A DNA stretch of 52,575 nt from Methanobacteriota archaeon (GCA_030605385.1 JAUWIL010000001.1:1-52575), one strand, 5' to 3'. Shown: positions 2,832 to 44,360, counted from the stretch's first letter. Notes: generated from the letters alone by a model not told the origin. Program-made: numbers and translations.

Positions 2832-3314
2832 ATGCCATACACAGTTTTTCTAAGCCATTGCACGAGTCCCGAGGATATGAAATATGTGAATTGGTTCGAT
2901 TCTACACTTAGAAATCAATGTATTGGGTGCTATGTTGCTGAATGGTATCGAGAGCCAAACAACCTTATAACAGACAAAATAAAAAACGCAATTAATGATA
3001 GCCAATGCGCTCTAGTATTATGGACGAAAAAAGGAAGAGGATCCCAATTCGTCAATCAAGAAGTAGGTTATGCTGAAGATAAAAAACTAATAATACCTCT
3101 TGTAGAAAAGGGAGTTCCATTAGGAGGGTTCCTTTATGGAAGGGATTGTATTGAATTTGAAAGAAACAATCCAACAGGAGCATTAAATAGTACCGTTGAA
3201 TATATCAATCAACTTAAGCTTGCCAAAGAGCAACAGGATATGGCAACGGGCATGGTTACTCTTCTCATTAGCCTTTTTACACTCGGAGGTCTACTTGCTG
3301 CAGCATCAAGGTAA
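2832..3314 (+). CDS. TIR-like domain protein with C-terminal transmembrane helix
   Basis: The N-terminus YTVFLSHCTSPED, then SQCALVLWTKKG...FVNQEVGYA...KLIIPLV, matches the TIR/DUF1863 layout (strand-SH start, conserved W/E helix). The last ~25 aa (GMVTLLISLFTLGGLLAAA) are hydrophobic. GGAGGTGA RBS lies 8 nt upstream. Confidence 0.6.
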   Translation: MPYTVFLSHCTSPEDMKYVNWFDSTLRNQCIGCYVAEWYREPNNLITDKIKNAINDSQCALVLWTKKGRGSQFVNQEVGYAEDKKLIIPLVEKGVPLGGFLYGRDCIEFERNNPTGALNSTVEYINQLKLAKEQQDMATGMVTLLISLFTLGGLLAAASR

Positions 3315-3326
3315 GAAACCTTCTTC

Positions 3327-3593
3327 CTAATACTTATTTTTACAGTATTGCTCTATTTGGTTCAACATCCCCTCGCTACCCGCAACGACCTTAATGTCTC
3401 GCAAGTCCTCCACTATCTTTTCAAAGACCTTGCATTTTCCTTTGAGGTGGGCGAGAGGGTGAAGATAAAAATCGACCCGGAGGGAGAAAGACTGATCGTT
3501 GAGAAACGGTACTCGTTTTGTCTCTCTTTTGTCTCTCTGCACTCTATTAAAGATTGTCAGAGGGTGCGACTCAGATAAAGTTAACTTTGTCAT
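3327..3593 (-). CDS. Hypothetical protein, last gene of a four-gene minus-strand operon
   Basis: ATG start with a GAGG RBS. It overlaps the stop of the upstream gene by 23 nt. No recognisable domain. Confidence 0.4.
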   Translation of the reverse strand: MTKLTLSESHPLTIFNRVQRDKRETKRVPFLNDQSFSLRVDFYLHPLAHLKGKCKVFEKIVEDLRDIKVVAGSEGMLNQIEQYCKNKY

Positions 3594-4401
3594 CTTTTAC
3601 CGCCTCTAGTTTATCCTCCCATATGTTATACTGGGTCATGTATTTCTCCCTCCTCTCGGCTAATCTTGTATCTAATTGAGTGGATTGTACGAACTCCTCT
3701 ATTTCGTTTGCCATCCTTCTTATCGTATCTATATCGCTTTTTATTTCCTCGCATTCCCTTATTTCCAATAGTTCTTTCTCGAATCTAGGAAAGATATCTT
3801 TAATGTAAATATGGCTATGTTTTTCCCCCAATATTGATCTTGTTAGTTTTGGGACGCCATCTCTTTTTAACCATTGTTTGCCATCTTTCATTCCAAATTC
3901 CGCTTCAAATTTGGGGATGTATCGTTCAAGTTCCTCGGAAGTCTCTATCCACCCTTCAACTTTTTCTTTGATATCCTTTTCTACTTCTCCTAGGTTAGAG
4001 TTATATTCTCCAACCTGTTTTCGGTATTCTGCTACGTCCTCAACCAGCTCCTTATGTCTTTTAATAAAATCTTTTTCAGCACCCGTATCGCCTTTTAAAC
4101 TCGGCCCCCAATATCTTAAAGAATCTATATTCCCACTCTTTATTTCAGATATAGTTTCCCCATTCATATATAGAGTTCTCATGATGGGGTCTATTATCTT
4201 GGCTATCGCGATTACTACACTGTCTCTTTCTCTGTCTTTACGTAGTTCATCTACCTGCTCACTTACCTTTTTGACACACACCCAAGTTATTATTGCTAAG
4301 AGTGCTGTTGCAACTGCAGTGACTGCTGCTGCGAGATTATTTGTTATTCCCTCTACCGCCATCACTACTATTTCTTCTGCTACCATTACCACTGTTTGCA
4401 A
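3571..4401 (-). CDS. Membrane-anchored helical/coiled-coil protein, unknown function
   Basis: N-terminal hydrophobic helix (AAAVTAVATALLAIITWVCV), followed by about 230 aa rich in E/K with heptad-like character. No known catalytic motif seen. Confidence 0.55.
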   Translation of the reverse strand: MQTVVMVAEEIVVMAVEGITNNLAAAVTAVATALLAIITWVCVKKVSEQVDELRKDRERDSVVIAIAKIIDPIMRTLYMNGETISEIKSGNIDSLRYWGPSLKGDTGAEKDFIKRHKELVEDVAEYRKQVGEYNSNLGEVEKDIKEKVEGWIETSEELERYIPKFEAEFGMKDGKQWLKRDGVPKLTRSILGEKHSHIYIKDIFPRFEKELLEIRECEEIKSDIDTIRRMANEIEEFVQSTQLDTRLAERREKYMTQYNIWEDKLEAVKDDKVNFI

Positions 4402-4461
4402 CCCTCCTATCTATAACAGGAACAGTTGTCAGCCAAATGAAAGGGCTGAACGTCTAAACTC

Positions 4462-4977
4462 CTAGTTCCTCCCTCTCTCTTTTGCAATAGCTTCTTGTAT
4501 CATTCTTTTAACCCTATCTTCATCCTGATTAATATCATCTTCATTGAACCACAGAACCTTCCACCCCCTCTCATTTAGTGCGTTCTCCTTCCCCGCATCT
4601 CTTTCTTTTGCATGCCAGTAGTCAGCGCCAGGCTCTATAGCAACTTTTTCGTTTACAAATGCGAAGTCGATCCAATATCTTGAAACATTGTACTGCTTTT
4701 CGTAATCCTCATGTTCTTTGAAGCACAGTTCGTTTAGATATTGCTCAGTCCTTTTTTCCAAGTCTGTGTCTTTTTTTGATGGCGGCACTACTTCTCGTTC
4801 AAAACGAACTTCATCTACTACAAAATTTAGTTCACAGTCTTGACAAGTTACTATGAAAGGAGGCTTCTGCTTAAGATAAAGGTTAAAGATGTTATAATAT
4901 CTCATACATTTTGGACATTTTGTCCACAGGTTCGTCCCACCGCCTATGTACGCAATACTTTTCATCATCTCTACCAT
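4462..4977 (-). CDS. Zinc-ribbon plus DUF559 (Vsr-like endonuclease fold) protein
   Basis: CPKC...CQDC zinc ribbon at the N-terminus. The C-terminus YWIDFAFVNEKVAIEPGADYWH...RDAGKENALNERGWKVLWFNEDDI matches the DUF559 pattern (Y.vDF...IE.DG..H...D..R...L...G..vlRf). Confidence 0.6.
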   Translation of the reverse strand: MVEMMKSIAYIGGGTNLWTKCPKCMRYYNIFNLYLKQKPPFIVTCQDCELNFVVDEVRFEREVVPPSKKDTDLEKRTEQYLNELCFKEHEDYEKQYNVSRYWIDFAFVNEKVAIEPGADYWHAKERDAGKENALNERGWKVLWFNEDDINQDEDRVKRMIQEAIAKERGRN

Positions 4978-4978
4978 A

Positions 4979-5521
4979 TTACCGCAGCTCCAACAATTCT
5001 ATCCCATATTTTTCCAATGTGGACAGCAACTCTGGATCTCTCTGCTTGCAGATTATCAGCTTCTGTATCTCGTTGACAGGATAGTTTTCTTTAACAAGAA
5101 CTTCGTAACTCAGCACTTGCCCGATTGCTTCGAAATTCAGTTTATCTTTGATTTCCGCTAAAACAATATTCTTATCCTTTATCATGTTAAGGAATCCTCT
5201 TTCAATATCTTCATCAGGAGACTTAGATCTCTTCCTGAATTTCACTATTCTTACATTATAAGAATCAGGAGTTTGAGCGCCAGTTTTTCCTTCAGGAATA
5301 AATATAGCATCAACTCTTTTTATTTCAGTTGACACGGTCTCACTCTCAAACACAGGTTTAACATGTACTTCTGCATAAATAGTTCCCCTAATTTCAGGAT
5401 CTTCTAACATCTTTTTATAATATTTATGCAACAATATGTCTTCTTTCCCCTTTGTCTTATTAGGTGGCCAAGGATCAGTATATGTTCCCATCACCAGGCC
5501 TACTGCTGACTTTTTAGCCAT
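4979..5521 (-). CDS. Putative PD-(D/E)xK nuclease-fold protein
   Basis: ORF 4979..5563. Start set to the ATG at 5521, which has a GGTGAT RBS 6 nt upstream. VDAIFIP ... VLAEIKDK gives a D...E-x-K arrangement. One nt separates its stop from the next gene's start. Confidence 0.45.
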   Translation of the reverse strand: MAKKSAVGLVMGTYTDPWPPNKTKGKEDILLHKYYKKMLEDPEIRGTIYAEVHVKPVFESETVSTEIKRVDAIFIPEGKTGAQTPDSYNVRIVKFRKRSKSPDEDIERGFLNMIKDKNIVLAEIKDKLNFEAIGQVLSYEVLVKENYPVNEIQKLIICKQRDPELLSTLEKYGIELLELR

Positions 5522-5625
5522 GTTCTTATCACCTTGCCATACTAACTTAACTATCAGGTGCAACCAACTTAAATGTACTTCTAGACATTTCTATACGCTT
5601 TCATGCTCCCATCAGAATAACAGCT

Positions 5626-5665
5626 CACGTTATGTTTATGTGTGAGTGATAGCATAAGAATAATG
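5626..5665 (+). promoter_or_regulatory. Copy 2 of the same motif, in the spacer between the minus-strand operon and the PIN gene
   Basis: CACGTTATGTTTATGTGTGAGTGATAGCATAAGAATAATG. The first 23 nt are identical to copy 1. Confidence 0.4.
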
Positions 5666-5822
5666 ATAGCTTTGATCTCAGGAAGATTGAAGTTCAAGCA
5701 TGAAGGTGTGTAAGCAAAATAGATTTCGTATGTCGTACCAAGATGATAGAATATATGGCATTAATGTCTGGTATGCCTAAGTTAGGCGACACACATATAT
5801 GTGAAGTAAACACGTAGGGATT

Positions 5823-6293
5823 ATGATGAAACGGAAGTTTAGAGTATACATAGACACGTCGGTCATCGGGGGATATTTAGACGAGGAGTTTAAAGATGCT
5901 TCAACGATGCTTGTTGGAAGATTTAAGAGAGGGGAGCTTGGAGCAGTAATCTCAGAGATCACCAAACTTGAATTGAAAAAAGCACCCAGCGATGTGCAGG
6001 GTGTGCTTAAAGAAATACCAGAAGAAAATATAGAGTATGTTGAACTAACCGATGAAGCAACAACCTTGGCTAAGGGATACGTATCTGACGGTGTATTGGA
6101 TGAAAACAAAATTGCAGATGCACAGCATATAGCCATCGCTACAGTTCATAATGTAGATCTGATTGTGAGTTGGAATTTTAAACACATAGTCAACATTAAT
6201 AAAATCAGAGGCTTCAATGCGGTAAACTTGAAAATGGGCTATCCACTAATAGATATAAGAAGCCCTCAGGAGGTGATATCCTATGAAGAATAA
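5823..6293 (+). CDS. PIN-domain protein (VapC-like toxin)
   Basis: YIDTSVIGG (first acidic residue), ISEITKLE, ADAQHIAIA and the SWNFKH C-terminal motif follow the PIN-domain spacing. Confidence 0.6.
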   Translation: MMKRKFRVYIDTSVIGGYLDEEFKDASTMLVGRFKRGELGAVISEITKLELKKAPSDVQGVLKEIPEENIEYVELTDEATTLAKGYVSDGVLDENKIADAQHIAIATVHNVDLIVSWNFKHIVNINKIRGFNAVNLKMGYPLIDIRSPQEVISYEE

Positions 6294-6414
6294 AAAATTT
6301 GATGCAGTGAAAATGATGAGGGAGATAAGGGACGAATTAAGTAAAAAATTTATACACATGACTTTTGAAGAGCAGAAAAAGTTCATCAAGAAAAGTCTAG
6401 AGCAGACAGCATAG
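6283..6414 (+). CDS. Small 43-aa protein overlapping the PIN gene stop, possible cognate antitoxin or partner
   Basis: ATG at 6283 overlaps the PIN gene 3' end by 11 nt. MKNKKFDAVKMMREIRDELSKKFIHMTFEEQKKFIKKSLEQTA is helical and charged. Below the ORF-track cutoff. Confidence 0.35.
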   Translation: MKNKKFDAVKMMREIRDELSKKFIHMTFEEQKKFIKKSLEQTA

Positions 6415-6482
6415 GGGGCATACACGTCGCATGAAAGGCACCGGTAGCATATATGGGCATGTGAAGGGCAGGATAATGATTT

Positions 6483-6881
6483 ATGTCACAAAAAGGTTGG
6501 TATTATAATCCCCCCAAGCCAAAGGTTCCTGAGGTAGAAAAAAACAGGATTAAGAGCATTTGTGGTGAGTATATTAGGACTGTTTTAAAACCTAAACATA
6601 TAATCCCCAGCCCCTCACATAAAGAGTATTATCATATTGAAGATATGTTTACAAAATGGTGGCGGAATTACTTTTATTTTTATGCCAAATACCATTATAC
6701 AGATCCAAATGCAATTAAGGAGTTTTTAGATCATGGCTTTGCCAGATTGGAATATGTTAATGAACACAGGTTCAATTTATCGTATATGAGACATACAGGA
6801 CAATGGTGGGAGGTTTTTTCAGAATTATCATTGGAAGAATGCTTAGACACCATCGAAGAAATGCCACATTTTAATCCATAG
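6483..6881 (+). CDS. Hypothetical protein, DUF3024-like
   Basis: Clean 132-aa ORF. The W/Y-rich core and the C-terminal GFARLEY...W.L.YMRHTGQWWEV...L.E.L..IEE resemble DUF3024 as I recall it. Not verified. Confidence 0.4.
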   Translation: MSQKGWYYNPPKPKVPEVEKNRIKSICGEYIRTVLKPKHIIPSPSHKEYYHIEDMFTKWWRNYFYFYAKYHYTDPNAIKEFLDHGFARLEYVNEHRFNLSYMRHTGQWWEVFSELSLEECLDTIEEMPHFNP

Positions 6882-7053
6882 AAAAGGCTAAATAAAGCAT
6901 ACTATTTACATGAAAGCTAACGGACTCGCATAACAGGTGGGCATGCGGTTCGCTGCATTCACCAAAATGCTCGGCTTGATCACATAATGCTCTCCTCTTC
7001 GTATTGAATATTACCGATGTTACAGGCTGTTGTAATAAGTGTAATGTTGGTGA

Positions 7054-7200
7054 ACTATAACGGTTAACCCGTTTAAGCCGGGATCTGGTTTGTATCCGCC
7101 TTATTTTGCTGGTCGTGTGAGGGAGATTGAAGTCTGGGCAGGTGGATGTATTACGCAATTGGCTTCATGGCACTTCTTTGAAAATGATGATTGTACTTAA
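7054..7200 (+). pseudogene. N-terminal fragment of an archaeal-type AAA/STAND ATPase (no start codon, truncated after ~45 aa)
   Basis: The frame reads TITVNPFKPGSGLYPPYFAGRVREIEVW... The NPF.PG....PP.F.GRE.E motif is the usual N-terminus of the archaeal ATPase family. There is no P-loop downstream and the frame stops at 7198-7200. Confidence 0.3.
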
Positions 7201-7277
7201 ACTCATGTTGTTCAATTGGGTTTAATCGAGAAACATTTAAACACAATTATATTCATTATTATAACTGAGGTGATAAA

Positions 7278-7421
7278 ATGGAAAAAAGACAAGTATGTTT
7301 TACCATTGAGGAGGATATAGTGAAAAACATGGAAGAACTAAGGGACAAAACCGGCGTGCCAGTGAGCAAGCAAATTGAGTTAGCTCTGAAAGGATACAAA
7401 ATCGAAAAAGTAGAGCAATAG
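7278..7421 (+). CDS. Ribbon-helix-helix small protein, 47 aa
   Basis: MEKRQVCFTIEEDIVKNMEELRDKTGVPVSKQIELALKGYKIEKVEQ shows the strand-helix-helix pattern. GAGGTGA RBS upstream. Confidence 0.5.
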   Translation: MEKRQVCFTIEEDIVKNMEELRDKTGVPVSKQIELALKGYKIEKVEQ

Positions 7422-7518
7422 TAAATTTCGGAGCATTTTAATGACGTATATTGAATTGAGTTTGGGTATCGTTATTGGTATTATTTTATCTTTAGTAGTG
7501 GATGTCGCCACAATACGC

Positions 7519-7863
7519 CTATATCTTAACCGATATCGTATCTTGATCTTCAAGAAAAACCTCTGCCACTGAATGGTTCGCCAGATCCAGTGCGTCTGCA
7601 ATTGCTTTTGGTATGGTTATCATGTATGAGTTGCCTCTTTTCGAGATTTTCACTTTCTCGTGTTTCTTAGCTTGCAGGAACAGGTAGGCTTTTTCCAGCG
7701 CTCCTGGGCTGAGCAGCTCATACTTGCACTTGGCGCATTTCCAACCACGTACTTTCAATCCTTCCACATCGATCTCGGTGCGCTCACACAGGTTGTTGCA
7801 CTGAGGGCACTTTAATCCCCCCTCTTCAAGATTCTTTAGTTCATCTATTTTTGATTCCGACAT
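7519..7863 (-). CDS. Antitoxin-like protein: YgiT/MqsA-type zinc ribbon fused to an AbrB/SpoVT domain
   Basis: CPQC...CAKC zinc ribbon. The C-terminal VKISKRGNSYMITIPKAIADALDL...VAEVFLEDQDTISVKI is a SpoVT/AbrB swapped-hairpin signature. Confidence 0.6.
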   Translation of the reverse strand: MSESKIDELKNLEEGGLKCPQCNNLCERTEIDVEGLKVRGWKCAKCKYELLSPGALEKAYLFLQAKKHEKVKISKRGNSYMITIPKAIADALDLANHSVAEVFLEDQDTISVKI

Positions 7864-8110
7864 GTTTTATTAACCACACTTCCTCGTCCAGAGAGTATGA
7901 GTAGCTGGGCACGAGCTTGGTGAAGACGATCTGATTCTTCCGATCGATTGCCCGGCCAACCTCTCCCTTCGTCATTCTTGCATCCTCGTAGTCGTATCCA
8001 TCCTCAATTATCTCCTGTAGTTTCCAGGGCGAGATGTCATGCCTCACCATATCTTTCAGCGCGTCTTTGCTGGGAATGCATAGTTTGCTTCTGAAGCGAA
8101 CATCAAACAT
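7841..8110 (-). CDS. Small toxin-like protein (possibly DUF4258/RelE-fold), upstream partner of the AbrB antitoxin
   Basis: Overlaps the antitoxin gene by 23 nt. The ATG at 8110 gives MFDVRF... An in-frame TTG at 8158 would add 16 aa encoded by the family A repeat. Family assignment is tentative. Confidence 0.45.
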   Translation of the reverse strand: MFDVRFRSKLCIPSKDALKDMVRHDISPWKLQEIIEDGYDYEDARMTKGEVGRAIDRKNQIVFTKLVPSYSYSLDEEVWLIKHVGIKNR

Positions 8111-8162
8111 GTCTGAAAACCTTTGGTTTTCATACTGTTGCGGAACTGCGTTCCGCAAACAT
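8105..8162 (+). repeat. Family A double-hairpin unit, solo copy
   Basis: AAACATGT CTGAAAACC TTT GGTTTTCA TACTGTT GCGGAAC TGC GTTCCGC AAACAT. Confidence 0.85.
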
Positions 8163-8317
8163 CTCTGGCTCCTGTATAAACAGTATGTTTAAACACCCTA
8201 TTAAAACTTTTTGTTACCAACGTTGTTTTTATCTTCCTTATACTTCAACCGCTATGTTATTCTTTCTCAAGCAACCTTGCTGTATTATAAAGTACAACTT
8301 TGTAATACAGAGAAAAA

Positions 8318-8669
8318 TCATTTGATTTTTCTCGCTGTTTCCTCGCTTATCTCTTGCTGCTCGCTGGTTGCGCCGGTCTCTATTCTGCGCTCCCTGGCCA
8401 TCCTGATCACGTCATACACGCTCTTGTTCAGCATGACTGCAGCATGTCTAAAACACTGCGTGTTTTATACGGTTGAAAAACTACGTTTTTCAAACACTGC
8501 TGAGAGATATCCTGCCGCGCGCGTATAAGTCCATCACGTACTCTGCAGCCCCCATGTAAAAAAGCTGTCTCATTGTAGTGCTTTTGTCCACGTACATCTC
8601 CCCGGTGCGCAGCTCCACCAGTGGAAGAATGTCCTCCGGTATTCGTAGTGGATATGATACCATGCCCAT
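8318..8669 (-). pseudogene. UPF0175-family (antitoxin-like) gene split by a family A hairpin unit
   Basis: The 5' part, 8669..8490, encodes MGMVSYPLRIPEDILPLVEL...AAEYVMDLYARGRISLSSV and stops inside the repeat. The 3' part, 8443..8318, encodes AAVMLNKSVYDVIRMARERRIE... Joining the two flanks gives an in-frame ...GRISLSSAAVMLNKS... typical of UPF0175. Confidence 0.6.
8444..8497 (+). mobile_element. Family A double-hairpin unit inserted inside a coding sequence
   Basis: CATGT CTAAAACAC TGC GTGTTTTAT ACGGTT GAAAAAC TAC GTTTTTC AAACA, flanked by CA on both sides. Confidence 0.75.
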
Positions 8670-8799: not shown

Positions 8800-9777
8800 C
8801 TATATCTTATCTATCTCGCGCATCTCGTTATAGTTAATGGCGGCGCCCATGGCGTATATCTCCGCAGATGAATTATCCTCCAGGACTGCGGCAATCATGT
8901 TAATTCCAGTGCACATGGTTATGCCGGCATGCCGTCCACTCACACGTATTCCAAGGTTTTCTTCCTCGCTGATCTTTATGGTGCCGTCGATACCTATACC
9001 TGCCATGTTTTCGATTATGCGCTTTGCATCATCGACTGCTGCGGAAGGTATTTCTCTGTAGTTGGCGAGAATCTTGCCGCTGCCCGTTCTGGCTGCACTT
9101 AGTATTGACGTCATGCCCCTGCTTATGAATATCTCGGTTGGATTCATTGATGTGCCGCTGTATCCTATCAGATCTGTGAATGCGGTTGGGCTGCTGCCAA
9201 GTATCTGTAGCGTGCCCGAGTATTTCATATCTACTGGTATTCCGCTTCTGATCAGCGCGCCGTCCACCGTCATGCTGCATATTGTTGCTATGCCAACCCT
9301 CCCGAAAGGTATGACAATACTGCCCCCAGCTCCTTCTTCCAGTATTTTCACCCGATTGCTCACAGCGTACCCTGCCTGTATAACCTCCTTTATTATGCCA
9401 ACGGCACGGTCAAACAGGCCTTTATCTACTATAAGTACGTCGCCGATCACCATGCCGCCGCCCTCTTCCAGATTGAATACCGTGTTGTAGATGAGTTCCT
9501 CTATCCTTGTTATCGTGAAGCCGAGACGGTCTTCCACAAGAGCGTCCTCAAGTTCTTTCAATCCGAAACTGGTTATGCTTCTGCCGTAGTTCCCGTGTTT
9601 GACGGTAAGCGTAGCACTGTCGAGTGAGGCAAGGTGGTACCTCACAGCGCGTTCGGTCACATCATACCCCCTCTTCATCAGTTCTTCTGCGATAGCCCTG
9701 GCTCCAAGCGGATCAGTGCTGTTACTGAGTATCCGCAGTATCTCTATCAGCATCCGCTCTGTCTTTTTTCTTGCCAT
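8800..9777 (-). CDS. nrpR: NrpR-type nitrogen regulatory repressor (wHTH plus DUF128 domain)
   Basis: The N-terminus ILRILSNSTDPLGARAIAEELMKRGYDVTERAVRYHL is a winged HTH. The remainder matches the DUF128/NRD layout of short Methanosarcina-type NrpR. Confidence 0.7.
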   Translation of the reverse strand: MARKKTERMLIEILRILSNSTDPLGARAIAEELMKRGYDVTERAVRYHLASLDSATLTVKHGNYGRSITSFGLKELEDALVEDRLGFTITRIEELIYNTVFNLEEGGGMVIGDVLIVDKGLFDRAVGIIKEVIQAGYAVSNRVKILEEGAGGSIVIPFGRVGIATICSMTVDGALIRSGIPVDMKYSGTLQILGSSPTAFTDLIGYSGTSMNPTEIFISRGMTSILSAARTGSGKILANYREIPSAAVDDAKRIIENMAGIGIDGTIKISEEENLGIRVSGRHAGITMCTGINMIAAVLEDNSSAEIYAMGAAINYNEMREIDKI

Positions 9778-9840
9778 AGCACCAATACTCCAACTGGGGT
9801 GTCATTCTGTATCTATTTTTCTGCACGTATTTGCACACTG

Positions 9841-9895
9841 CTTGCGGAGCAAAGCTCCGCAACCGTATAAAACACGCAGTGTTTTATACATGTAT
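9841..9895 (-). repeat. Family A double-hairpin unit, solo copy in inverted orientation
   Basis: The reverse complement reads ACATGT ATAAAACAC TGC GTGTTTTAT ACGGTT GCGGAGC TTT GCTCCGC AAG. Confidence 0.8.
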
Positions 9896-9934: not shown

Positions 9935-10729
9935 TCAGCCCACGCAGTATATGATATTTGATATTTCTGCCAGCTTATCGGCGGGTATCTGTTCTGCACG
10001 CAGTTTAAGATAGTCCTCAGGTATATCATCAAGCGCTTTTGTTATATCTAACTGGGGCAGCATATGACCCGTCTTAAGAAGCGCCTTTCGCAGGGTCTTG
10101 CGGCGCTGTGTGAATATCGCAGTTATAAAATCCATGAAAAAATCCTCATTCCTGACGCTGTACGGCGGCTTGCGCGGTTTTAGTTCAACCACGGCAGACG
10201 TTACCTCTGGCATCGGATAAAAAGCGCTCCGCGGCACTACCTCAAGTATTCTTGGCGTCGTATAGTAGTTCACGGCTATTGACAATCTGCCGTAGTTCTT
10301 TGAGCCAAATTCTGCGGTCATGCGCCTGGCAAACTCGTACTGGTACATCAGAACTGCCAGCCTGAAGCCCAGCCCGATTAGCCTGAATGTAATCCTGGAC
10401 GATATGGAATACGGCAGGTTTGAAACTGCTTTATCCACCTCAGGCAGATCTATTTTCATCGCGTCGGCATGTATTAACTCAATATTATCTCTACCACGGT
10501 ACTTGTTTTCCAGTTCTCCGAACAAATCCTTATCCACTTCTATCGCTATGACTCTTCCAGCCTTCTCAACCAGCTTATCTGTCAGGTTTCCATAACCTGG
10601 TCCTATTTCGAGTATGGTCTCTTCACTGCCTATACCAGCATACTCCACGATGCGCTCTATTACCCGCTCGTCTCTGAGAAAATGCTGACCTCTACTGCGC
10701 CTGCGCATGATACCACTGCCACCGGTCAT
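9935..10729 (-). CDS. ksgA: 16S rRNA (adenine1518/1519-N6)-dimethyltransferase KsgA/Dim1
   Basis: GQHFL, the SAM motif ILEIGPGYGNLT, and NLPYSISS. Confidence 0.9.
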   Translation of the reverse strand: MTGGSGIMRRRSRGQHFLRDERVIERIVEYAGIGSEETILEIGPGYGNLTDKLVEKAGRVIAIEVDKDLFGELENKYRGRDNIELIHADAMKIDLPEVDKAVSNLPYSISSRITFRLIGLGFRLAVLMYQYEFARRMTAEFGSKNYGRLSIAVNYYTTPRILEVVPRSAFYPMPEVTSAVVELKPRKPPYSVRNEDFFMDFITAIFTQRRKTLRKALLKTGHMLPQLDITKALDDIPEDYLKLRAEQIPADKLAEISNIIYCVG

Positions 10730-10744
10730 ATTTTTTATTTGCCT

Positions 10745-10869
10745 GTCGAACTTTCAGTTCGACTGTCTTGCGAAAGATCTGATTTCGCAAAGTCTTGCAA
10801 AACATAGTTTTGCGGGATATCTGAAGGCTCTGCCTTCAGAGATATCTTGCAGAACGAAGTTTCGCGGGA
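10745..10869 (+). repeat. Family B hairpin array (5 hairpins of 19-27 nt)
   Basis: GTCGAACT/AGTTCGAC. Then TCTTGCGAAA..TTTCGCAAAG, TCTTGCAAAAC..GTTTTGCGGGA, TATCTGAAGG..CCTTCAGAGATA and TCTTGCAGAAC..GTTTCGCGGGA. Confidence 0.85.
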
Positions 10870-10963
10870 CATCGTCATCCGCCCGGAATCCAGATGTTTC
10901 AGATAAAATGATATTATGAGAAAAGCTGTAGTTATTATCTTTGGTGAATGGTTTGGGAGCTTT

Positions 10964-11572
10964 TCAGGGGCTGCCTGTCCTCGGCGTGAATATACGGTAT
11001 TTGCAGTTCTCGTCCTGCAGCTCCTCCTCTATTCGGTTCGCCACTATCTTGTCTGGATTGTGTATTGTCTTGACTCTCTCTGAGAGTTCTTCGAAGCTCT
11101 TGAATGGACCCTTCTTCCGTTCATCAAGTATCTCCCGCAGCGTTTTTTTACCTATGCCTGGCAGAAGGCTCAGCATGTGAAGGCGCGTTGTTATTGGATA
11201 CGATTCGTTGTATACTTTGATGAATCGTTCCCCGTTTTTGTCAACAATTGTCTTGAGTATGAATGGGAGTTCTATCTGGGCATTGTGCGTAAGTTCATCA
11301 TACCTGAGCCTGCGCTTGACGTGGTCTATCACATCGCGCTCTCCGTCTCCTATATACGCCCGGTCGTACTGCTGGGGTACCGTATCCTCTTTGGGAGCGA
11401 GTTCCATTAGAATGAAGTTTTCTTCTCCAACCGCCTGCAACAGCGGGTGCTTCTGGTAGAGCGGTCTGGTGTCATCCGGATGCCCGTGCGGCAGGTAATC
11501 AAGAATCCATACGTAGAGTTCTCTCGCTCTTCTGGCATTACTGTACGGCATCAGCAGATCCCCAAAACTCAC
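10964..11572 (-). CDS. DUF655 family protein (OB-fold plus HhH, predicted nucleic-acid binding)
   Basis: Conserved archaeal neighbour of rpoF and ksgA. Motifs: LDYLPHGHP...YIG...R, and a C-terminal HhH LPGIGKKTLREIL. Confidence 0.7.
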   Translation of the reverse strand: MSFGDLLMPYSNARRARELYVWILDYLPHGHPDDTRPLYQKHPLLQAVGEENFILMELAPKEDTVPQQYDRAYIGDGERDVIDHVKRRLRYDELTHNAQIELPFILKTIVDKNGERFIKVYNESYPITTRLHMLSLLPGIGKKTLREILDERKKGPFKSFEELSERVKTIHNPDKIVANRIEEELQDENCKYRIFTPRTGSP

Positions 11573-11922
11573 TTTATGTATTTGCCTACAATATCAAGTA
11601 TTTCTTCAAGTTCTTTATTATTCAGCGTGAACCGTTCCTTGGCGTATATTGATCTAACCTCATCATTCGATTGGGGCATTATATCGGCTATCCTTACGGC
11701 TATGTCAGGGCGCACCTTATCCAGCTTGCTTAGTTCTCCAACGAGCTTCCTGGCGGATTTGGCATCGATCTTTGCGAATGTCTCGACGTGCTCTATCACC
11801 CTTCGCATGCCGTAGGGCAGCTCCCCCTCATCCTTGCTTCGTCCCTTCTTAACTTTGCTCAATATGTTCTTGACTTCAGCATATGTGAGCATATCTTCGG
11901 CAAGAACTTCTCTGACTATCAT
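11569..11922 (-). CDS. rpoF: DNA-directed RNA polymerase subunit F (Rpo4)
   Basis: Size, the start ...LTYAEVKNIL..., and its position between rpl21e and the DUF655 gene. 4-nt overlap with the downstream gene. Confidence 0.75.
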   Translation of the reverse strand: MIVREVLAEDMLTYAEVKNILSKVKKGRSKDEGELPYGMRRVIEHVETFAKIDAKSARKLVGELSKLDKVRPDIAVRIADIMPQSNDEVRSIYAKERFTLNNKELEEILDIVGKYIK

Positions 11923-11929
11923 AGCGTAT

Positions 11930-12220
11930 TCACCTCTGGGGTATCAGGTGTACCGGTCGTGATATTACTTCCTTCCTGGCATTGCCGTCGGTTACCTCAA
12001 CTATATATGCCCTGCCTCTCTTTCCAACAATCTTGCCGGTCTTACCGTGGAACCTGGGGTTGGGCATGCCCTTATGAATGCTTGGTTCTATATTTATGTG
12101 CACACTTTGACCCATATCAAATTCCCTCACGTGGCGGGTTATCGGTAAGAGTCCCCTCTCACGTATGCTCTTTTTCAGTTTGTATCGCGTTTTCCGGCGT
12201 TCGCCTCTAGACCTTGCCAT
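11930..12220 (-). CDS. rpl21e: 50S ribosomal protein L21e
   Basis: [15 protein letters not shown]...[18 protein letters not shown], typical of L21e. Confidence 0.9.
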
Positions 12221-13500
12221 TGCCGTTCACCTGTTAGATCCATACTTACTTCGATTACGTCCAATTCCTTGACTGCCGCATCGATTCCAAGCAAGCTACT
12301 GATGCTAGGCTCCGTACGACCCATATCGCCATTGACGAACTCTTTTACGTAGAGTCCTCCTTCACACCGCAACTGTATGACTGCCTGAGTGCCGGTGATA
12401 TCGTCAAATGATATTAATGCAGCCTCATGTATCTTTCTGTTGCGCTGCAGGTCGGCACGTCTGTGCATTACCCTTGTTGGGGTCTGCTGTCTGATGATAA
12501 TCCCTGATAATGCTCTCAAGGTCGATTTAAGTTTTTCTTTGTTTACTTTAGACTTAAATGTGGCTGAAATGTTATAAACCTTATCCGATTCGGTGCTCTT
12601 TATGTGCCTGACGACCTCTTTGTCAGCGTATCTGGCGTCCAAAACTTCCACACGACCTTTATTATCTTCATTTATTCTGGACACTACTTCTACAAGGTCT
12701 GCGTGACGTATCAGCGGCGATATAATCTCCATTACAAATGGGCGCCCGCTCCCGAGCATTCGCGCATCTATATCTTCACGCCCCGCGCCGTGCAGTATCA
12801 TATCTTCTCCTTTGAAAAAATCCAGGACTGATGACCTTATGAGTTCCTCGACAGATTCACTATACTGTTTGCCAGTGTAATTGCATTTCTCGCATCCCTT
12901 GCCTCTGCACTCCCTGCACGGCCAGCGCGTCTGCGGAATCCCCCGTTCAAGCTTTCTGTACCTGCCGTATATGAACAATGAGTTTATGTCCAGCCTGACC
13001 TGCTCCCGTTCTATGTCCATGATAACGACTACATCGGGGCGCTTGAATTCGACTTCCTTTTTGGTGATGCTGCATATCCGCTTGCCAACCTCGCGATTGA
13101 GTTCTGACTTTAGCAACTCGGCAAACGTCGTTCCCGACAGAGTCCACAACACCTCCTCGTTCTCAGCCAGCAAACCGGTTATCATTGTGCCTACCAGAAA
13201 CGTATCGAAGTCCACGCTCTCAAGCTCTTGAACCGCACGCTCTGCCCACACATCGAGTTCCGTGAACAGCCCGTTGCAGACCCAGCAGTCTTTACCATGG
13301 TCTAACGCCAGCGCTTCATTCCGCTGCATCGACAGCATGATTCTTACTGCGCGCCCCCGCTCATCGTTGCTCATACCAGTGGAAAGGTTTGCGAACTGGC
13401 GCCCAAGGCAGTGGTCACATATAGGGCCCTCGCTGACTGTTTTCCGTGCTATCTCCAGTATTCCGTCCTCATCAGCCATTTTCTGCGCCATCAGTTCCAA
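12175..13500 (-). CDS. pus10: tRNA pseudouridine(54/55) synthase Pus10
   Basis: N-terminal zinc CDHC...CWVC, a THUMP-like middle region, and the catalytic region [16 protein letters not shown]. The 3' end overlaps rpl21e by 46 nt in another frame. Confidence 0.85.
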
Positions 13501-13705: not shown

Positions 13706-14404
13706 TCAAATCTCCACCTTCAGATCCTGCGAAACGGAGTTTCGCGGGACAGGCGAAAGCTTTGCTTTCGACAAGGTCCTGCGAATGTCAAGCTCGTTAT
13801 GTACTACTATCATGCAGTGGTCCACATGCAGTGATTTTTGTCCGACGCTTACATTTCTTGCACAGGCATCTGCAAGGAGCCGCTCATATTCTTCACCAAG
13901 TCCCATATGGTCGCCAAGCACGAAAATCAGTTTATCACCCATCTCAATTTCTCTTATCCACTCGCCTGTTTCAACAAGATATATTATATCTGTGCCGTCA
14001 CCGCACCCTTCCAGCACATCCTTCATGTCCCCTTTACGTATGTATACGCCAGGAGTTGACAATATTTCATGCTCGGTGATGTTCTGCCTTCCAAGCGCCT
14101 TGCTTATCAGCGAGGCTGCGCTTCTTTCATCCGGGCTGAGATATCTCAGCTCACTGCCTTCAAAGCGTATCAGGATCGGGGGATTTGGCTCTCCGAGCAG
14201 CAGAAGCCAGAGTCTTGTATCTCTCCGTATATCGTGCGACAGAAAGAACGCTGAATTGACGCACCTGCATACTATATCCATCCTGCCGGCTGAACCTGGG
14301 AGGTCTTTCAGGCTGAAACCGCCGGTCGTAGTAGCTGTGCTGCTAACCACCAGAAATTCCCTTCTAACGCCCTCTCCCCTAACACCCATGTTGATCTCAC
14401 TCAC
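13706..14404 (-). CDS. trmY: tRNA (pseudouridine54-N1)-methyltransferase TrmY (SPOUT)
   Basis: GRMDIVCRCVNSAFFLSHDIRRD...LSPDERSAASLI matches TrmY/DUF358. The last ~28 codons are encoded by family B repeat sequence. Confidence 0.7.
   Translation of the reverse strand: MSEINMGVRGEGVRREFLVVSSTATTTGGFSLKDLPGSAGRMDIVCRCVNSAFFLSHDIRRDTRLWLLLLGEPNPPILIRFEGSELRYLSPDERSAASLISKALGRQNITEHEILSTPGVYIRKGDMKDVLEGCGDGTDIIYLVETGEWIREIEMGDKLIFVLGDHMGLGEEYERLLADACARNVSVGQKSLHVDHCMIVVHNELDIRRTLSKAKLSPVPRNSVSQDLKVEI
13725..13790 (+). repeat. Family B hairpin array (2 to 3 hairpins) overlapping the trmY 3' end
   Basis: TCCTGCGAAAC GGA GTTTCGCGGGA, then CAGGCGAAAGC TTT GCTTTCGACAAG, then a truncated GTCCTGCGAA. 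Confidence 0.8.
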
Positions 14405-27929: not shown

Positions 27930-29390
27930 TCAATTAGCGAGAAGCTCCTTACTGGCAATTATTTTGAGCGATACCGGCATCTTTGCAACGTTACCAATCT
28001 TTATGCCAATCAGGTAGTCCAACCTCTTCTCAGCAGCAATATCTATGATTCTCTGAGTGATTACGCCATCGAATACTACACCTTTGGTGTCATTATTAGA
28101 TTCTTTGAGCGTTTCTACGAGGTCCCGCACAGCCACCTCCTTGACTGTCTTCTTATCGCTGTCCAGGAGCCTTGCGTTCAACGTGCTGTTGAGTTCCTCA
28201 GCATGAATCCTTAACTTACTATCAGCCCCAACAGGCTTGATCATCATACTCTGGGTGTGCTCTGCATTCACATGCCCTCGCGGGACTGCATTGTCCCGCA
28301 AGACCTTTGGTCTAGGTCTATCTGGACTCTGAGTGCCGGCAACAGGTTCTACCCGTTCAACCCTGCCCTTTCTCCGTATTGATAGAATTCTCTTGGATTG
28401 GCTACCATATTGTTTGCTATCCTGCTTCCGTGTCTCATCCCTACCCAATGCCTGCCTTGAGTCTTGATGTCTTGTGGGGGGTTGACGTCTTGAATCACGT
28501 GGGCTGCTGGTGTCACGCCTTTGCTGTTGATACGGGCGTCTTCCACCATTCTTCAACGCATACATATCTCTAGCCTGTTCTATGGGAATCTTGTTGCGGA
28601 GTGACTTTATGATCTCCTTCTGCGTCAGCTCCTCGACCCCTTTGCCATCCGGCGCTCTTGCAACATAATCCACATCTGCAATCTGTATTAACTCCTTCAG
28701 TATAAGTTCGCCCCCGCGGTCGCCGTCAGTAAAAGCCGTAACCGTCTTCCTCTTGCTCAGTTCCACTACTGAATGCGGTACATTCGTACCCTCCACAGCA
28801 ACAGCATTCTTGATGCCGCATCTGAGAAGTTTGAGTACGTCAGCCCGGCCCTCAACTATCAGGATCGCATCTGAACTGATTACGTTCGGACCTGCAGGCA
28901 GCTTCTCGCTACCAAAGTATGTTATCTCCTCTACGCGTATTGCCTGTTTTACCTCACCCATAATCTCCTGTGTTTCGGGAATGGCTTCATCAAACATATC
29001 CTGAACTATGTTCTTCGCGCGATCGATGATGTGCCTGCGCTTTGATGCGCGCACATCCTCAACACTGGCCACTTTTATATTCGCTACACATGGTCCAACT
29101 CTATCTATCGTCTCAAGTGCTGCCGCAAGTATGGCAGTCTCGGTCTTGTCCAGACTGGAAGGTATCTGAACTGTTCCCCTTGACTTTCCGGCACTGGACT
29201 CTATGTTAACTTCTATCCTGCCTATGCGACCCGTTTTCTGCAGGTCGCGCAGGTCGAGATCGTCACCTAACAAGCCCTCTGTCTGCCCAAATATGGCGCC
29301 CACTACATCTGGACGCTCCACAATTCCTTCCGCAACTATGTTAGCGCAAATGACATACTTTGTTGTATCATAATCCTGCATTATATTCAC
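27930..29390 (-). CDS. dnaG: Archaeal DnaG primase (Toprim)
   Basis: KYVICANIVAEGIVERPDVVGAIFGQTEGLLG, the Toprim motifs ILIVEGRADV and FTDGDRGGE. An R/Q/S-rich disordered insert of about 95 aa lies before the C-terminal domain. Confidence 0.9.
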   Translation of the reverse strand: MNIMQDYDTTKYVICANIVAEGIVERPDVVGAIFGQTEGLLGDDLDLRDLQKTGRIGRIEVNIESSAGKSRGTVQIPSSLDKTETAILAAALETIDRVGPCVANIKVASVEDVRASKRRHIIDRAKNIVQDMFDEAIPETQEIMGEVKQAIRVEEITYFGSEKLPAGPNVISSDAILIVEGRADVLKLLRCGIKNAVAVEGTNVPHSVVELSKRKTVTAFTDGDRGGELILKELIQIADVDYVARAPDGKGVEELTQKEIIKSLRNKIPIEQARDMYALKNGGRRPYQQQRRDTSSPRDSRRQPPTRHQDSRQALGRDETRKQDSKQYGSQSKRILSIRRKGRVERVEPVAGTQSPDRPRPKVLRDNAVPRGHVNAEHTQSMMIKPVGADSKLRIHAEELNSTLNARLLDSDKKTVKEVAVRDLVETLKESNNDTKGVVFDGVITQRIIDIAAEKRLDYLIGIKIGNVAKMPVSLKIIASKELLAN

Positions 29391-30495: not shown

Positions 30496-30651
30496 TCTCC
30501 AACAATCTATAAAAAACGCATTCGAAGTAAGTAGGTGCCTCAGAACTCATAGGGTCTGTCATCACCCTTTAAGGGGCTCAGCTATTATCTTCTTCATCAT
30601 CGGCACCTGTAGAAATATCGGGAGTCAAGTGCCTTAATAGTTCTTACCACA

Positions 30652-30767
30652 TCTTGCGAAGCACAGCTTCGCGGGATATCTGAAGGGTGCGCCTTCAGAA
30701 ATATCTTGCGAAATCGGAGATTTCGCGAGACAACCGAATACGAAGTATTCGTTAAGTCTTGCGGGGG
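30652..30767 (+). repeat. Family B hairpin array (4 hairpins plus a truncated fifth), abutting the pyrF stop
   Basis: TCTTGCGAAGC..GCTTCGCGGGA, TATCTGAAGG..CCTTCAGAAATA, TCTTGCGAAATC..GATTTCGCGAGA, CAACCGAATAC..GTATTCGTTAAG, then TCTTGCGGGGG. Confidence 0.85.
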
Positions 30768-31427: not shown

Positions 31428-31460
31428 TTTCCTTCCTCATCTAATTCATATTTTTTACAT

Positions 31461-31838
31461 GTATGAAATGCGAAGCATGTCCGAAAACCTTAGGTTTTCG
31501 TACTGTTGCGGAACTTCGTTCCGCAAACATGTCTGGAAGCGAAGCTTCCATACGGTTACAGAGCTCCGCTCTGTAAACATGTTTAAAAATCTTTGATTTT
31601 TAAACGGTTGAAAAACTACGTTTTTCAAACATGTCTAAAAGTGGAACTTTTAGACTGTTATGGAACTTTGTTCCATAAACATGTCCGAAAACCTTAGGTT
31701 TTCGTACTGTTGCGGAACTGCGTTCTGTAAACATGTATGAAAAGCTCTGCGTTTCATACGGTTATGGAGCTGTGCTCCATAAACATGTTTAAAAATCTTT
31801 GATTTTTAAACGGTTGCAAAACTACGTTTTGCAAACAT
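31461..31838 (+). repeat. Family A double-hairpin array: one truncated plus seven complete 50-52 nt units
   Basis: Units start at 31476, 31528, 31578, 31630, 31680, 31732 and 31784. Every junction reads AAACATGT. Confidence 0.9.
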
Positions 31839-31873
31839 TCCAATCTCTCACTTTTTACATTCCAATCTCTCAC
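31836..31873. repeat. Direct repeat CATTCCAATCTCTCAC x2 separated by TTTTTA (part of a 22-nt tandem duplication)
   Basis: Read directly. It covers the dys stop codon. Confidence 0.9.
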
Positions 31874-39995: not shown

Positions 39996-40743
39996 CGAGA
40001 TTCGCTTATTTGCTCCTGAGGAAGTCCCTCTGATAAAAGAGGGGGACGACATAGTCGATATCATACTCGACGCAGTGGAACTCAAGAGTCATGATATAGT
40101 AGTAATTGCATCAACCATAATGTCCAAGTCTGAGGGTAGAGCTATTTCCCTCGATAGTATCAGACCGTGCGCCAGAGCGGTTGAGCTTGCATCGAACCTG
40201 AACGAAGACCCGAGATTCATGGAGCTTGTTCTGCAGAACAGCCGCAGAATAATAGTCGAGCGCCCCATACTTCTGACCGAAATGCCGAACGGGTACATAT
40301 GCATCAAGGCAGGTATAGACAGGTCCAACGTCAAGGATGGTAAGGCACTACTGCTCCCCGCTGACCCTGATAAGAGCGCGAAAGGTATACACGACCGGAT
40401 TCTCGAGCGCACCGGAAAGAGGGTGAGCATAATAATATCAGACACATCAGGCAGAGCCTTCCGCATGGGTCAGACCGCAGTAGCCGTAGGGTGTGCGGGC
40501 ATTGGTCCGCTGCTGAACTGGGTCGGAATGAAGGACCTTTACGGGCACGAGCTTGAAATAACAGAGGAAGCCGTGGCTGATGAACTTGCAGGCGCATCAA
40601 ACCTGCTCACAGGCGAGGGCAACGGCGGTAAACCCATAGTAGTGGTGCGCGGATTAGACCTGTACTCGGATTCACATGGTGTTGCGGCACTACACCGCAA
40701 AGACGAGGATGATGTAATAAAGAGGGCTTTGCTGCATGTTTAA
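39985..40743 (+). CDS. cofE: Coenzyme F420-0:L-glutamate ligase
   Basis: IKEGDDIVDII..., IKAGIDRSN, IISDTSGRAFRMGQTAVAVG. The stop codon lies inside the first family A repeat unit. Confidence 0.85.
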   Translation: MGVAEIRLFAPEEVPLIKEGDDIVDIILDAVELKSHDIVVIASTIMSKSEGRAISLDSIRPCARAVELASNLNEDPRFMELVLQNSRRIIVERPILLTEMPNGYICIKAGIDRSNVKDGKALLLPADPDKSAKGIHDRILERTGKRVSIIISDTSGRAFRMGQTAVAVGCAGIGPLLNWVGMKDLYGHELEITEEAVADELAGASNLLTGEGNGGKPIVVVRGLDLYSDSHGVAALHRKDEDDVIKRALLHV

Positions 40744-40966
40744 AACGCAAGGCATTTTAGACGGTTGTGAAATCTCTGATTTCACAAACATGTCTGAAAA
40801 AGCAACGCTTTTTCATACGGTTACAGAATCTTCGATTCTGCAAACATGTTTAAAATGCAAGGCATGTTCGAAAACCTTAGGTTTTCGTACTGTTGTAGAA
40901 CGTAGTTCTACAAACATGCCTAAAACACTACGTGTTTTATGCTGTTGCAAAACGTAGTTTTGCAAA
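40735..40966 (+). repeat. Family A double-hairpin array: four complete units and one truncated unit
   Basis: Units start at 40735, 40789, 40845 (18-nt stub), 40863 and 40915. Confidence 0.9.
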
Positions 40967-41007
40967 CAGGAGAAAAGATGAAGTAAAAAAAAGTGGTGAT
41001 AATATTC

Positions 41008-41541
41008 ATGAGCGGCGCCAGAGCCAGACGTCTTGAAAGCGACTATAAGCGCATGTGCGAACTCGATAAAAGCAGTAATTTCATCTCTTTTGCCTGCGAG
41101 GGGGACCCGCCAGAGAAATATGCAGTCACCTTCAGATGCAAGGGCATTATGAAGCGCGACGACGGCAGTCTAGCGAATTCCGTCCGCCATACTCTCGAGA
41201 TCTACCTGACGATGGATTATCCGATGCGCCAGCCCCAGTTGAAGTGGATGACTCCCGTATTTCACCCGAACATACTGGGCGCCACGCACCCATACAACCC
41301 GGGTACCGTGTGCCTCGGAAGCTGGGTGCCTTCCATGTTTCTCGACGACCTCTGCATAAAGCTGGGCGAGATGATTCAGTACAAAAATTTCAGCCTGAAC
41401 AGCCCACTGGATGCCGAGGCTGCGGTATGGGCAAACAAGTTCAAGCTTTCGATGCCAGTCGATGATCGACCTCTGCTGTTAGGCAGCGCCGAAAAATGCG
41501 ATGGTGAGGGCGATGATGAGTTTGACATAATAGTAGAGTAA
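41008..41541 (+). CDS. Ubiquitin-conjugating enzyme E2 (UBC fold)-like protein
   Basis: N-terminal ARRLESDYKRM helix, ...PEKYAVTF..., YPMRQPQLKWMTPVFHPNI......GTVCLGSWVPS: an HPN triad, a catalytic-position Cys and the following W.P, in the canonical E2 order. Confidence 0.7.
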   Translation: MSGARARRLESDYKRMCELDKSSNFISFACEGDPPEKYAVTFRCKGIMKRDDGSLANSVRHTLEIYLTMDYPMRQPQLKWMTPVFHPNILGATHPYNPGTVCLGSWVPSMFLDDLCIKLGEMIQYKNFSLNSPLDAEAAVWANKFKLSMPVDDRPLLLGSAEKCDGEGDDEFDIIVE

Positions 41542-44275: not shown

Positions 44276-44360
44276 GTTAGTATCGGGTTGTTAGTATCGG
44301 GTTGTTAGTATCGGGTTGTTAGTAGTAATGAAAATCGGTTCCTGGTAATCGGTTCCTGGT
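44276..44360. repeat. Two adjacent tandem repeats: about 3.5 x 14 nt (GTTAGTATCGGGTT), then 2 x 14 nt (AATCGGTTCCTGGT)
   Basis: Read directly, upstream of the CorC/HlyC-family gene. Confidence 0.9.

Follow-up and report, generated by a model that had tools for sequence, protein, structure and literature searches.

Small palindromic repeats and the Y1 transposases that accompany them are well studied in bacteria but are little documented for archaea beyond the palindrome-associated transposable elements (PATEs) of haloarchaea. We know of no REP-RAYT system in archaea, the domain to which the host considered here belongs. PATEs are derived from IS200/IS605 (IS1341-type) transposons, encode no transposase, carry near-terminal palindromes, are not accompanied by target duplication and, in forms consisting of the termini only, are reduced to 52 bp (PMC3119063). 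REP, BIME and REPIN elements are imperfect palindromes of 20–40 nt which are extragenic and clustered (PMC2817692, PMC3479197, PMC3733652). A REP-RAYT system is characterised by a RAYT gene in single copy with REPs on its flanks, by more than 100 REP copies per genome and by a GTAG or CGTC tetranucleotide conserved at one palindrome end. REP and IS200/IS605 hairpins alike are imperfect, and correction of the mismatch in an E. coli REP abolishes TnpA-REP binding (PMC3479197).

We have extended these comparisons to a window of 52,575 nt, one whole contig (JAUWIL010000001.1) and a chromosome fragment of an archaeon, in which strings of hairpins constitute approximately 2% of the sequence. The host is a deep-branching relative of Methanosarcinales and Methanocellales. 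Its KsgA protein is the single member of its own cluster (P0001), the next best homologues among 5.8 billion proteins being 50–54% identical and the closest originating from Methanocellales, Methanoperedens and other Methanosarcinales. New in this case are REP/PATE-like palindromic elements which, in an archaeon, are arranged as phased strings.

Results

The genes surrounding the hairpins are encoded on the minus strand and correspond, by Pfam, to Pus10 (12175–13500), L21e (11930–12220), RpoF (11569–11922), DUF655 (10964–11572), KsgA (9935–10708 or 10729) and NrpR (8800–9777). Further housekeeping genes in the window include those for class I LysRS, an XPD-like helicase, GatD, deoxyhypusine synthase, SecDF, CofE and Nre, as well as pyrF. 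The original prediction described a tightly packed operon whose 235-nt spacer between DUF655 and ksgA is filled by five hairpins. The packing is as described, RpoF and DUF655 overlapping by 4 nt and L21e and RpoF being separated by 7 nt. Five hairpins are also present, but they cover only 128 nt of a spacer of 234 nt, or 255 nt with the ksgA start at 10708 given by the database gene call (257 aa) in place of the alternative start at 10729 (264 aa). The hairpins, each of 23–27 nt, abut one another at 10743–10870 and are read here on the + strand. The first, D (GTCGAACT ttc AGTTCGAC, 10743–10765), is a solo, strand-symmetric hairpin with energies of −9.9 kcal/mol on + and −10.2 on −, and the second, B0 (TCTTGCGAAA gatctga TTTCGCAAAG, 10766–10792), is a solo B-type hairpin in whose foot T-A, T-A replaces T.G, T.G. 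These are followed by B1 (TCTTGCAAAAC ata GTTTTGCGGGA, 10793–10817), C (ATATCTGAAGGC tct GCCTTCAGAGAT, 10817–10843) and B2 (TCTTGCAGAAC gaa GTTTCGCGGGA, 10845–10869). As the last three align as a composite at three loci, the five hairpins are two solo hairpins and one composite.

The pattern TCTTGC-N8-16-GCGGGA matches three times in the window, always on the + strand, compared with 0.04 matches expected from shuffles, and looser variants add copies at 13725 and 30704. These, with the copy at 30652, bear out the predicted recurrence of the type. Up to nine hairpins abut in succession in the window, compared with at most two in 20 dinucleotide shuffles and at most two in 777 kb from 59 loci of relatives. 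An intrinsic terminator, which requires a G+C-rich hairpin and a T run, was rejected, a T run being absent after the B hairpins on both strands. Rfam 15 covariance models gave no hit at gathering thresholds, with generic miRNA-precursor-like matches only below threshold, and a weak IS605-orfB-II match (25 bits, E 0.13) was not reproduced on re-search.

Alignment identified the repeated unit as a composite of ~80 nt formed by three hairpins, B1-C-B2, at three loci, with the layout (A)TCTTGC..GCGGGA - TA - TCTGAAGG..CCTTCAGA - RATA - TCTTGC..GCGRGACA. B1 and B2, both TCTTGC..GCGGGA on the + strand, are in direct orientation near the two ends of the element. Copy 1 (10792–10872, +) comprises the last three spacer hairpins and can alternatively fold as one long hairpin. 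Copy 2 (30651–30732, +), with B1 at 30652–30676, C at 30676–30702 and B2 at 30704–30730, has 84% identity to copy 1 over 58 nt and carries compensatory changes in its stems; it lies in the interval from the pyrF stop to a candidate C/D-box sRNA and is abutted by a solo hairpin, E (CCGAATAC gaa GTATTCG, 30733–30753, +). Copy 3 (13724–13790, +) is diverged, B1 reading TCCTGC..GCGGGA and being followed by C' (GGCGAAAGC ttt GCTTTCGAC) and a decayed B2. A covariance model of six B units retrieved five canonical copies on the + strand (38–42 bits), then a candidate on the minus strand at 28273–28306 (TCTTGCGGGAC aatgca GTCCCGCGAGG; 21.3 bits, E 2.5e-4), then hairpins of another family. The candidate is an uncertain one, located inside the low-complexity, disordered linker of a Toprim/DnaG-like ORF and oriented opposite to the B copies. 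In total, the six B units are accompanied in the window by more than 30 related ones, and every unit is located either between genes or at the end of a gene.

The sRNA candidate next to copy 2, at 30536–30606 on the minus strand (GATGATGA ... CTGA ... GTGATGA ... TCTGA), reaches 39 bits with sR41 (E 3.5e-7), short of the gathering score. It is likely an archaeal C/D-box sRNA, 45 nt from the composite.

Double compensatory changes are present at three B stem pairs. Between B1 of copies 1 and 2 there are two such changes and one loop change, with zero uncompensated stem changes, and 95.5% of B stem cells are paired, compared with 24–56% when the partners are slid. Together with family A stems (below), which vary yet remain self-complementary, the double compensatory changes indicate that structure is conserved rather than sequence. 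The composite loci are unlinked, 3 kb and 20 kb apart, and their flanks are unrelated. A target-site duplication is absent, no direct repeat being common to the flanks of copies 1–3, a comparison that covers three copies only. The left flanks read CAAAG, CCACA and TCAGA and a right end of ...GACA is common to two copies, the boundaries being imprecise. B flanks read (A)TC...GA(Y)A, and GTAG and CGTC are absent.

Copy 3 extends into a PF04013 RNA methyltransferase ORF (13706–14404, −) at its 3' end. The last ~25 residues of this TrmY-like protein (ending ...LSKAKLSPVPRNSVSQDLKVEI at the stop) lie past the end of the Pfam match and are encoded by copy 3 (13706–13790, −), indicating that insertion replaced the original C-terminus and stop codon. 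The methyltransferase gene adjoins that for Pus10, which makes the pseudouridine methylated by TrmY-type enzymes.

Outside the window, searches for the element were negative. The composite core, GCGGGAYATCTGAAGG-N3-7-CCTTCAGA, had zero matches in a metagenome scan, and TCTTGCRAA-N7-9-TTYGCGGGA had only two in viral contigs, both chance occurrences within high-GC coding sequence. Blastn of the string against plasmids and phages returned no match, the B covariance model detected no B copies over 71 fetched loci, only weak Argoarchaeum hairpins, and a 1617-aa six-frame translation query of the A and B strings matched no protein at E ≤ 1.

Several known structures were considered and rejected. In a CRISPR array the spacers would vary, whereas here the units abut at distances of 0–4 nt and the variation is in the stems. 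The 3-nt centre is too short for the tyrosine-recombinase core of integron attC or dif/Xer sites. A TIR-type MITE is inconsistent with the lack of a duplication, the ends appearing inverted only because each terminal hairpin is itself palindromic. Mimicry of the KsgA helix 45 was discounted as there is no resemblance and copies occur at unrelated genes, and an assembly artefact as the copies are contig-internal, diverged, present at several loci and flanked by intact genes. We conclude that B1-C-B2 is a dispersed, inserted, structure-constrained palindromic element.

The window also contains at least 11 perfect tandem direct repeats with periods of 11–18 nt, 2–3.5 copies and 100% identity, at 3516, 21814, 22675, 29955, 35740, 38415, 39827, 39968, 44276–44324, 44333 and 51593. 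They are mostly intergenic or at gene ends, several being directly upstream of start codons. Tandem repeats have been described in Borg elements (PMC9879509); the repeat habit is similar, but the window is a housekeeping chromosome fragment.

These repeats bear on another origin for the strings, namely local tandem duplication or slippage with occasional recombination, intrastrand repair keeping the palindromes, and neither a dedicated transposase nor a function. The 11 or more perfect intergenic duplications of 11–18 nt are in keeping with it, as are family A arrays with periods of 52 and 102 nt and an indel in Ca. Argoarchaeum bounded by a 6-nt direct repeat (both below). We consider this origin quite unlikely, as an 80-nt composite recurs at loci that are unlinked (3 kb and 20 kb apart) and have unrelated surroundings, and is present in a junction that was ancestrally of 2–20 nt, and slippage does not account for feet and linkers that are conserved while the upper stems vary with compensation.

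The ancestral state of that junction is evident from relatives, in which the gene order Pus10-L21e-RpoF-DUF655-KsgA is kept. DUF655 and KsgA are separated by ~20 nt in ANME-2 and other Methanosarcinales and by 14 nt and 2 nt in Methanocellales-like contigs, and the genes overlap in Methanomicrobiales; hairpin strings are found at none of the compared DUF655-KsgA loci. With gaps of 2–20 nt or an overlap in relatives versus 234–255 nt here, the string is derived, that is, an insertion. Below the string, a TATA-like box, TAAAAAATATGA, at 10726–10737 (−) precedes the ksgA ATG at 10708 by 17 nt. The same 12 nt recur without change at 31446–31457 (−), 18 nt ahead of the pyrF ATG and again at the edge of a hairpin string. 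The two copies are probably TATA boxes of the leaderless genes ksgA and pyrF. The position of the box below the string suggests that ksgA is now probably its own transcription unit and that the strings lie between units. The view that the hairpins reside inside the ksgA operon thus calls for qualification, the junction having ancestrally been of 2–20 nt and ksgA now probably being transcribed separately.

On the + strand, the B foot pairs as T-A, C-G, T.G, T.G, a pattern that had been proposed to favour this strand. Stem cells are 95.5% paired on + (10 as G.U) and 83.3% on − (11 unpaired), and RNA folding energies agree, with + and − values of −12.3/−6.5, −7.6/−3.0, −16.1/−12.9, −16.2/−10.7 and −15.4/−12.3 kcal/mol. 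The comparison of folding energy on both strands, run as had been suggested, thus gave each B hairpin a + strand advantage of 3–6 kcal/mol with RNA parameters and 1–2.4 with DNA parameters. It also holds that all three B loci are on + between minus-strand genes, the weak candidate at 28273–28306 (−) aside. A shared orientation at three loci has, however, a probability of 0.25 (p = 0.25), and the presence of T.G at the same two positions in every copy indicates that it is inherited and reflects 1–3 independent events only. Combined with the symmetry of sister family A, these considerations make the evidence for one relevant strand thin. The strand asymmetry of the B subfamily is real but inherited. 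GC skew in the window tracks gene orientation only and says nothing on replication direction.

The original prediction went further, proposing that either a specific DNA strand or an antisense transcript is the relevant molecule. The asymmetry on which it was based is confirmed, but the argument for a single relevant strand is weakened as described. Between the two, a DNA strand fits better, given the like-oriented subterminal palindromes, the T.G or bulged-T feet of IS200 ends and the finding of no consistent + strand promoter ahead of the three B loci. An explanation based on + strand RNA would have the strings transcribed from bidirectional TATA boxes and functioning as structured ncRNA, or as a roadblock or insulator against antisense transcription running into the upstream gene. 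It would account for G.U feet that add 3–6 kcal/mol per hairpin on + only, for a foot position 3 that pairs as U-G, U-A and C-G while C.A is never seen, and for the antisense placement of all three B loci with respect to neighbouring genes. TATA-like boxes at 10726–10737 and ~30633–30640 are, in addition, 11–15 nt from the string starts, so that a divergent start would fall in the first hairpin. Nevertheless, we regard this explanation as unlikely. The copy at 13724 has no promoter-like box ahead of it, Rfam gives only generic miRNA-like hairpin matches, and the T.G positions are inherited, not independently evolved. Family A shares the core yet is symmetric, with sense and antisense loci equal in number. 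It also counts against the RNA explanation that archaeal termination does not, to our knowledge, depend on hairpins.

Family A is more abundant than B and consists of a 52-nt unit with two alternating hairpins, A1 (GTCYGAAAACC nnn GGTTTTCRTAC) and A2 (TTGCRRAAC nnn GTTYYGCAA), the latter taking the form TTGCGGAAC nnn GTTCCGCAA in the largest string. This string alternates A1 and A2 with a 52-nt period at 31457–31840 (+). A second string, at 40735–40970 (+), is situated between two + strand genes, cofE and a UQ_con ORF; a third, at 8083–8495 (+), has hairpins at 8083–8195 and 8446–8495 downstream of nrpR; and a dimer, A1 then A2, is inverted in the nrpR-ksgA spacer at 9840–9889 (−). Strings extend to ~14 hairpins, head to tail, with a 26/52-nt period, arrays of family A having periods of 52 and 102 nt. 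Stem feet and linkers are conserved, and upper stems and loops differ between neighbours with each unit still self-complementary. The core of A2 (TTGCAAAAC gta GTTTTGCAA) is that of B (TCTTGCAAAAC ata GTTTTGCGGGA), from which it differs in that GG replaces AA in the 3' arm of B, converting T-A into T.G, and in the flanks. Strings of family A show no strand asymmetry in folding (−158.2 vs −157.7 kcal/mol for the largest), and family A is co-oriented with neighbouring genes at two loci and anti-oriented at two. Counted together, six of the seven A and B string loci are on the + strand, in line with the reading favoured in the Discussion. The B-core hairpins belong to a lineage-specific superfamily of palindromic units of 21–27 nt, with 9–11 bp stems and 3-nt loops.

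Two gene groups in the window were recorded separately. The UQ_con (ubiquitin-conjugating, E2) domain ORF at 40993–41541 is followed by a MoxR-type AAA ATPase (41912–42802) and a 403-aa protein that has no Pfam match (42865–44076), genes which may form a ubiquitin-like modification cluster in an archaeon. The region 2832–7863, of lower GC (0.39), encodes TIR-domain, DUF559/restriction-like, PIN, DUF3024 and MazE-like proteins and looks like a defence or toxin-antitoxin islet.

A further alternative is that the hairpins are arrayed dsDNA sites for a dimeric regulator or nucleoid protein, for example the neighbour-encoded NrpR, whose operator is GGAA-N6-TTCC. Some A2 units do read GGAAC-nnn-GTTCC, nrpR is located at 8800–9777 and the half-sites TTGC and GCAA occur at fixed spacing. 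An NrpR operator array was rejected, however, as the spacing is N5 not N6 and the GGAA/TTCC half-sites are missing in most units. For duplex recognition in general, upper stems vary freely but are compensated, a pairing that a duplex-binding protein does not need, and T.G feet are meaningless in duplex DNA. We therefore judge dsDNA sites to be very improbable.

The elements resemble PATEs in being archaeal, too short to encode a transposase and devoid of strict terminal inverted repeats (PMC3119063). Similar palindromes lie near both ends in the same orientation and target duplication is lacking, as judged from the three copies of the composite; minimal PATEs are of ~52 bp and the family A unit is of 52 nt; and both occur in intergenic DNA and at gene ends. 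In contrast to PATEs, there is no known resident IS200/IS605 element with palindromes matching those in the window, no conserved 4–6 nt target or terminal oligonucleotide is visible in the composite, whose boundaries are imprecise, and the strings abut head to tail, with ~14 hairpins and a 26/52-nt period, an arrangement undescribed for PATEs. With REP, BIME and REPIN elements they share imperfect, extragenic and clustered palindromes and the existence of sub-families with alternative complementary stem residues, which is seen in both B and A units. They also share a stem irregularity that confers polarity and, in REPs, is required for recognition by an ssDNA-acting Y1 enzyme. They differ in that the GTAG or CGTC tag is absent and, from BIMEs and REPINs, in that neighbouring B units are direct, not alternating or inverted.

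A metagenome scan with the A1 hairpin returned 25 loci. In six of these, the hairpin is flanked on one side by the left-end palindrome and on the other by the start of a gene for a Y1 transposase of IS200 type (PF01797, E 1e-33 to 1e-35); six more share that IS200 flanking sequence, five of the six being cut at contig ends, and ten, in archaeal contigs of low GC, belong to a conserved 5' leader that is unrelated. The commonest A1 hairpin shares 21 identical nt with a hairpin located inside the left end of IS200 elements found in unrelated metagenomes. The match is a lead, not proof, as a simple short palindrome in ~4–5 independent contexts is near chance in ~10^12 bases. A conserved motif of ~40 nt, AAGGTGACTTGTTAGGAAAACCTTAGGTTTTCATACGA, was also observed in archaeal metagenome contigs of low GC, where it precedes start codons by 8–10 nt (L060, L065, L067, L069, L075, L078, L079, L081, L082 and L084, with two copies in L075).

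The shape of the IS200 ends tells more than the A1 match. In the IS200 elements fetched (L061–L064 and L073), the palindrome at the left resembles that at the right and has the same orientation, with 9–10 bp stems, 3–4 nt loops and, on the tnpA-sense strand, a T.G wobble or bulged T near the foot, as in CCTCGAGGC tct GCCTCGGGG and CTTCGGGGC tct GCCCCGGGG. The likeness to the IS200/IS605 group thus extends to stems of 9–11 bp, loops of 3–4 nt, T.G or bulged-T irregularities of the active strand, and similar left and right ends in direct orientation, as are B1 and B2. The window hairpins differ in that neither tnpA nor tnpB lies between or near them and in that the B sequence is unlike the IS ends found, a comparison of the B hairpin with known IS ends having given no match. 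In a survey of 20 IS200 loci from viral contigs, the count of T.G versus C.A was obscured by noise. The C hairpin, taken as 10821–10841 (CTGAAGGC tct GCCTTCAG), and the terminal palindrome of L063 and L064 (CCTCGAGGC tct GCCTCGGGG) have the 11-mer AGGCTCTGCCT, including the loop, in common; this sharing may be chance.

Hairpins of 21 nt are also present in Ca. Argoarchaeum (GoM-Arc1), for which we found no earlier description. They read CTTGATTAC tgc GTAATCAAG, CTGCACAAC gaa GTTGTGCAG and CTCGATTGC ttc GCAATCGAG and occur directly after ksgA in three genomes, plus a second locus (L004:10741–10840 and 1291–1351; L006:3092–3306; L007:10726–10746). They are like the window hairpins in their 9-bp stems, 3-nt loops (tgc, gaa, ttc) and CTTG...CAAG foot, in the succession of several units, seen at two or more loci, in indel differences between genomes, and in a 14-mer, TGCAGAACGAAGTT, common with B2 at 10848–10861. 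In contrast, their sequences are otherwise different, units are 10–40 nt apart and the T.G foot is lacking. L006 and L004 differ, in an otherwise identical stretch, by a 49-nt hairpin-bearing indel bounded by a TCTGCA direct repeat. Phased repeats of small hairpins are thus in flux in at least one further lineage of the group.

Discussion

The reading that we favour, and to which we would give an even chance, is that the B hairpins are non-autonomous REP/BIME- or PATE-like elements recognised as one-strand DNA hairpins by an IS200/IS605-type Y1 transposase encoded elsewhere. The B hairpins are the subterminal palindromes of a ~80-nt non-autonomous element, B1-C-B2, that colonises intergenic DNA. 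They would be extruded on one particular DNA strand and be recognised and moved in that form, the candidate enzyme being an HUH Y1 transposase encoded at another genomic site, either a TnpA of IS200/IS605 or a RAYT-like relative. As an irregularity specific to one strand, the T.G, T.G foot would identify the active strand and lend polarity to a near-palindrome, and strings may grow by insertion beside existing units in combination with local tandem duplication. Both the ssDNA mechanism and the identity of the enzyme are what we infer.

Several observations run against transposition. No Y1 or HUH transposase gene was detected in the window, by Pfam on 48 ORFs or by tblastn, there is no GTAG/CGTC tag and the three copies have no left-flank target in common. 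The gain in stability from G.T is small with DNA parameters (1–2.4 kcal/mol) and larger with RNA parameters (3–6), and the many perfect tandem repeats of short period in the window demonstrate that arrays can arise by local duplication alone.

A more far-reaching proposal is that the strings represent an undescribed archaeal system, either a vertically inherited counterpart of REPIN-RAYT or antisense RNA insulators or processed small RNAs produced from bidirectional TATA boxes. We rate this proposal low in probability, and we know of no documented case of a vertically inherited REPIN-RAYT partnership in archaea. If either version were true, a phasing of 26 nt, together with feet that are conserved beneath upper stems that vary freely but are compensated, would be a sign of machinery dedicated to recognition.

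In the organism itself, a conserved informational operon, Pus10-L21e-RpoF-DUF655-KsgA, has been split by the strings, which have also rewritten the C-terminus of one protein. The Argoarchaeum hairpins suggest a wider phenomenon which can be surveyed in public genomes. If the RNA reading were true, the strings would represent antisense insulators of a new type. If recognition as ssDNA were true, the T.G foot would provide a simple means of telling the active strand and, given the full genome, the orientation of the elements could be read against replication direction in an uncultured archaeon.
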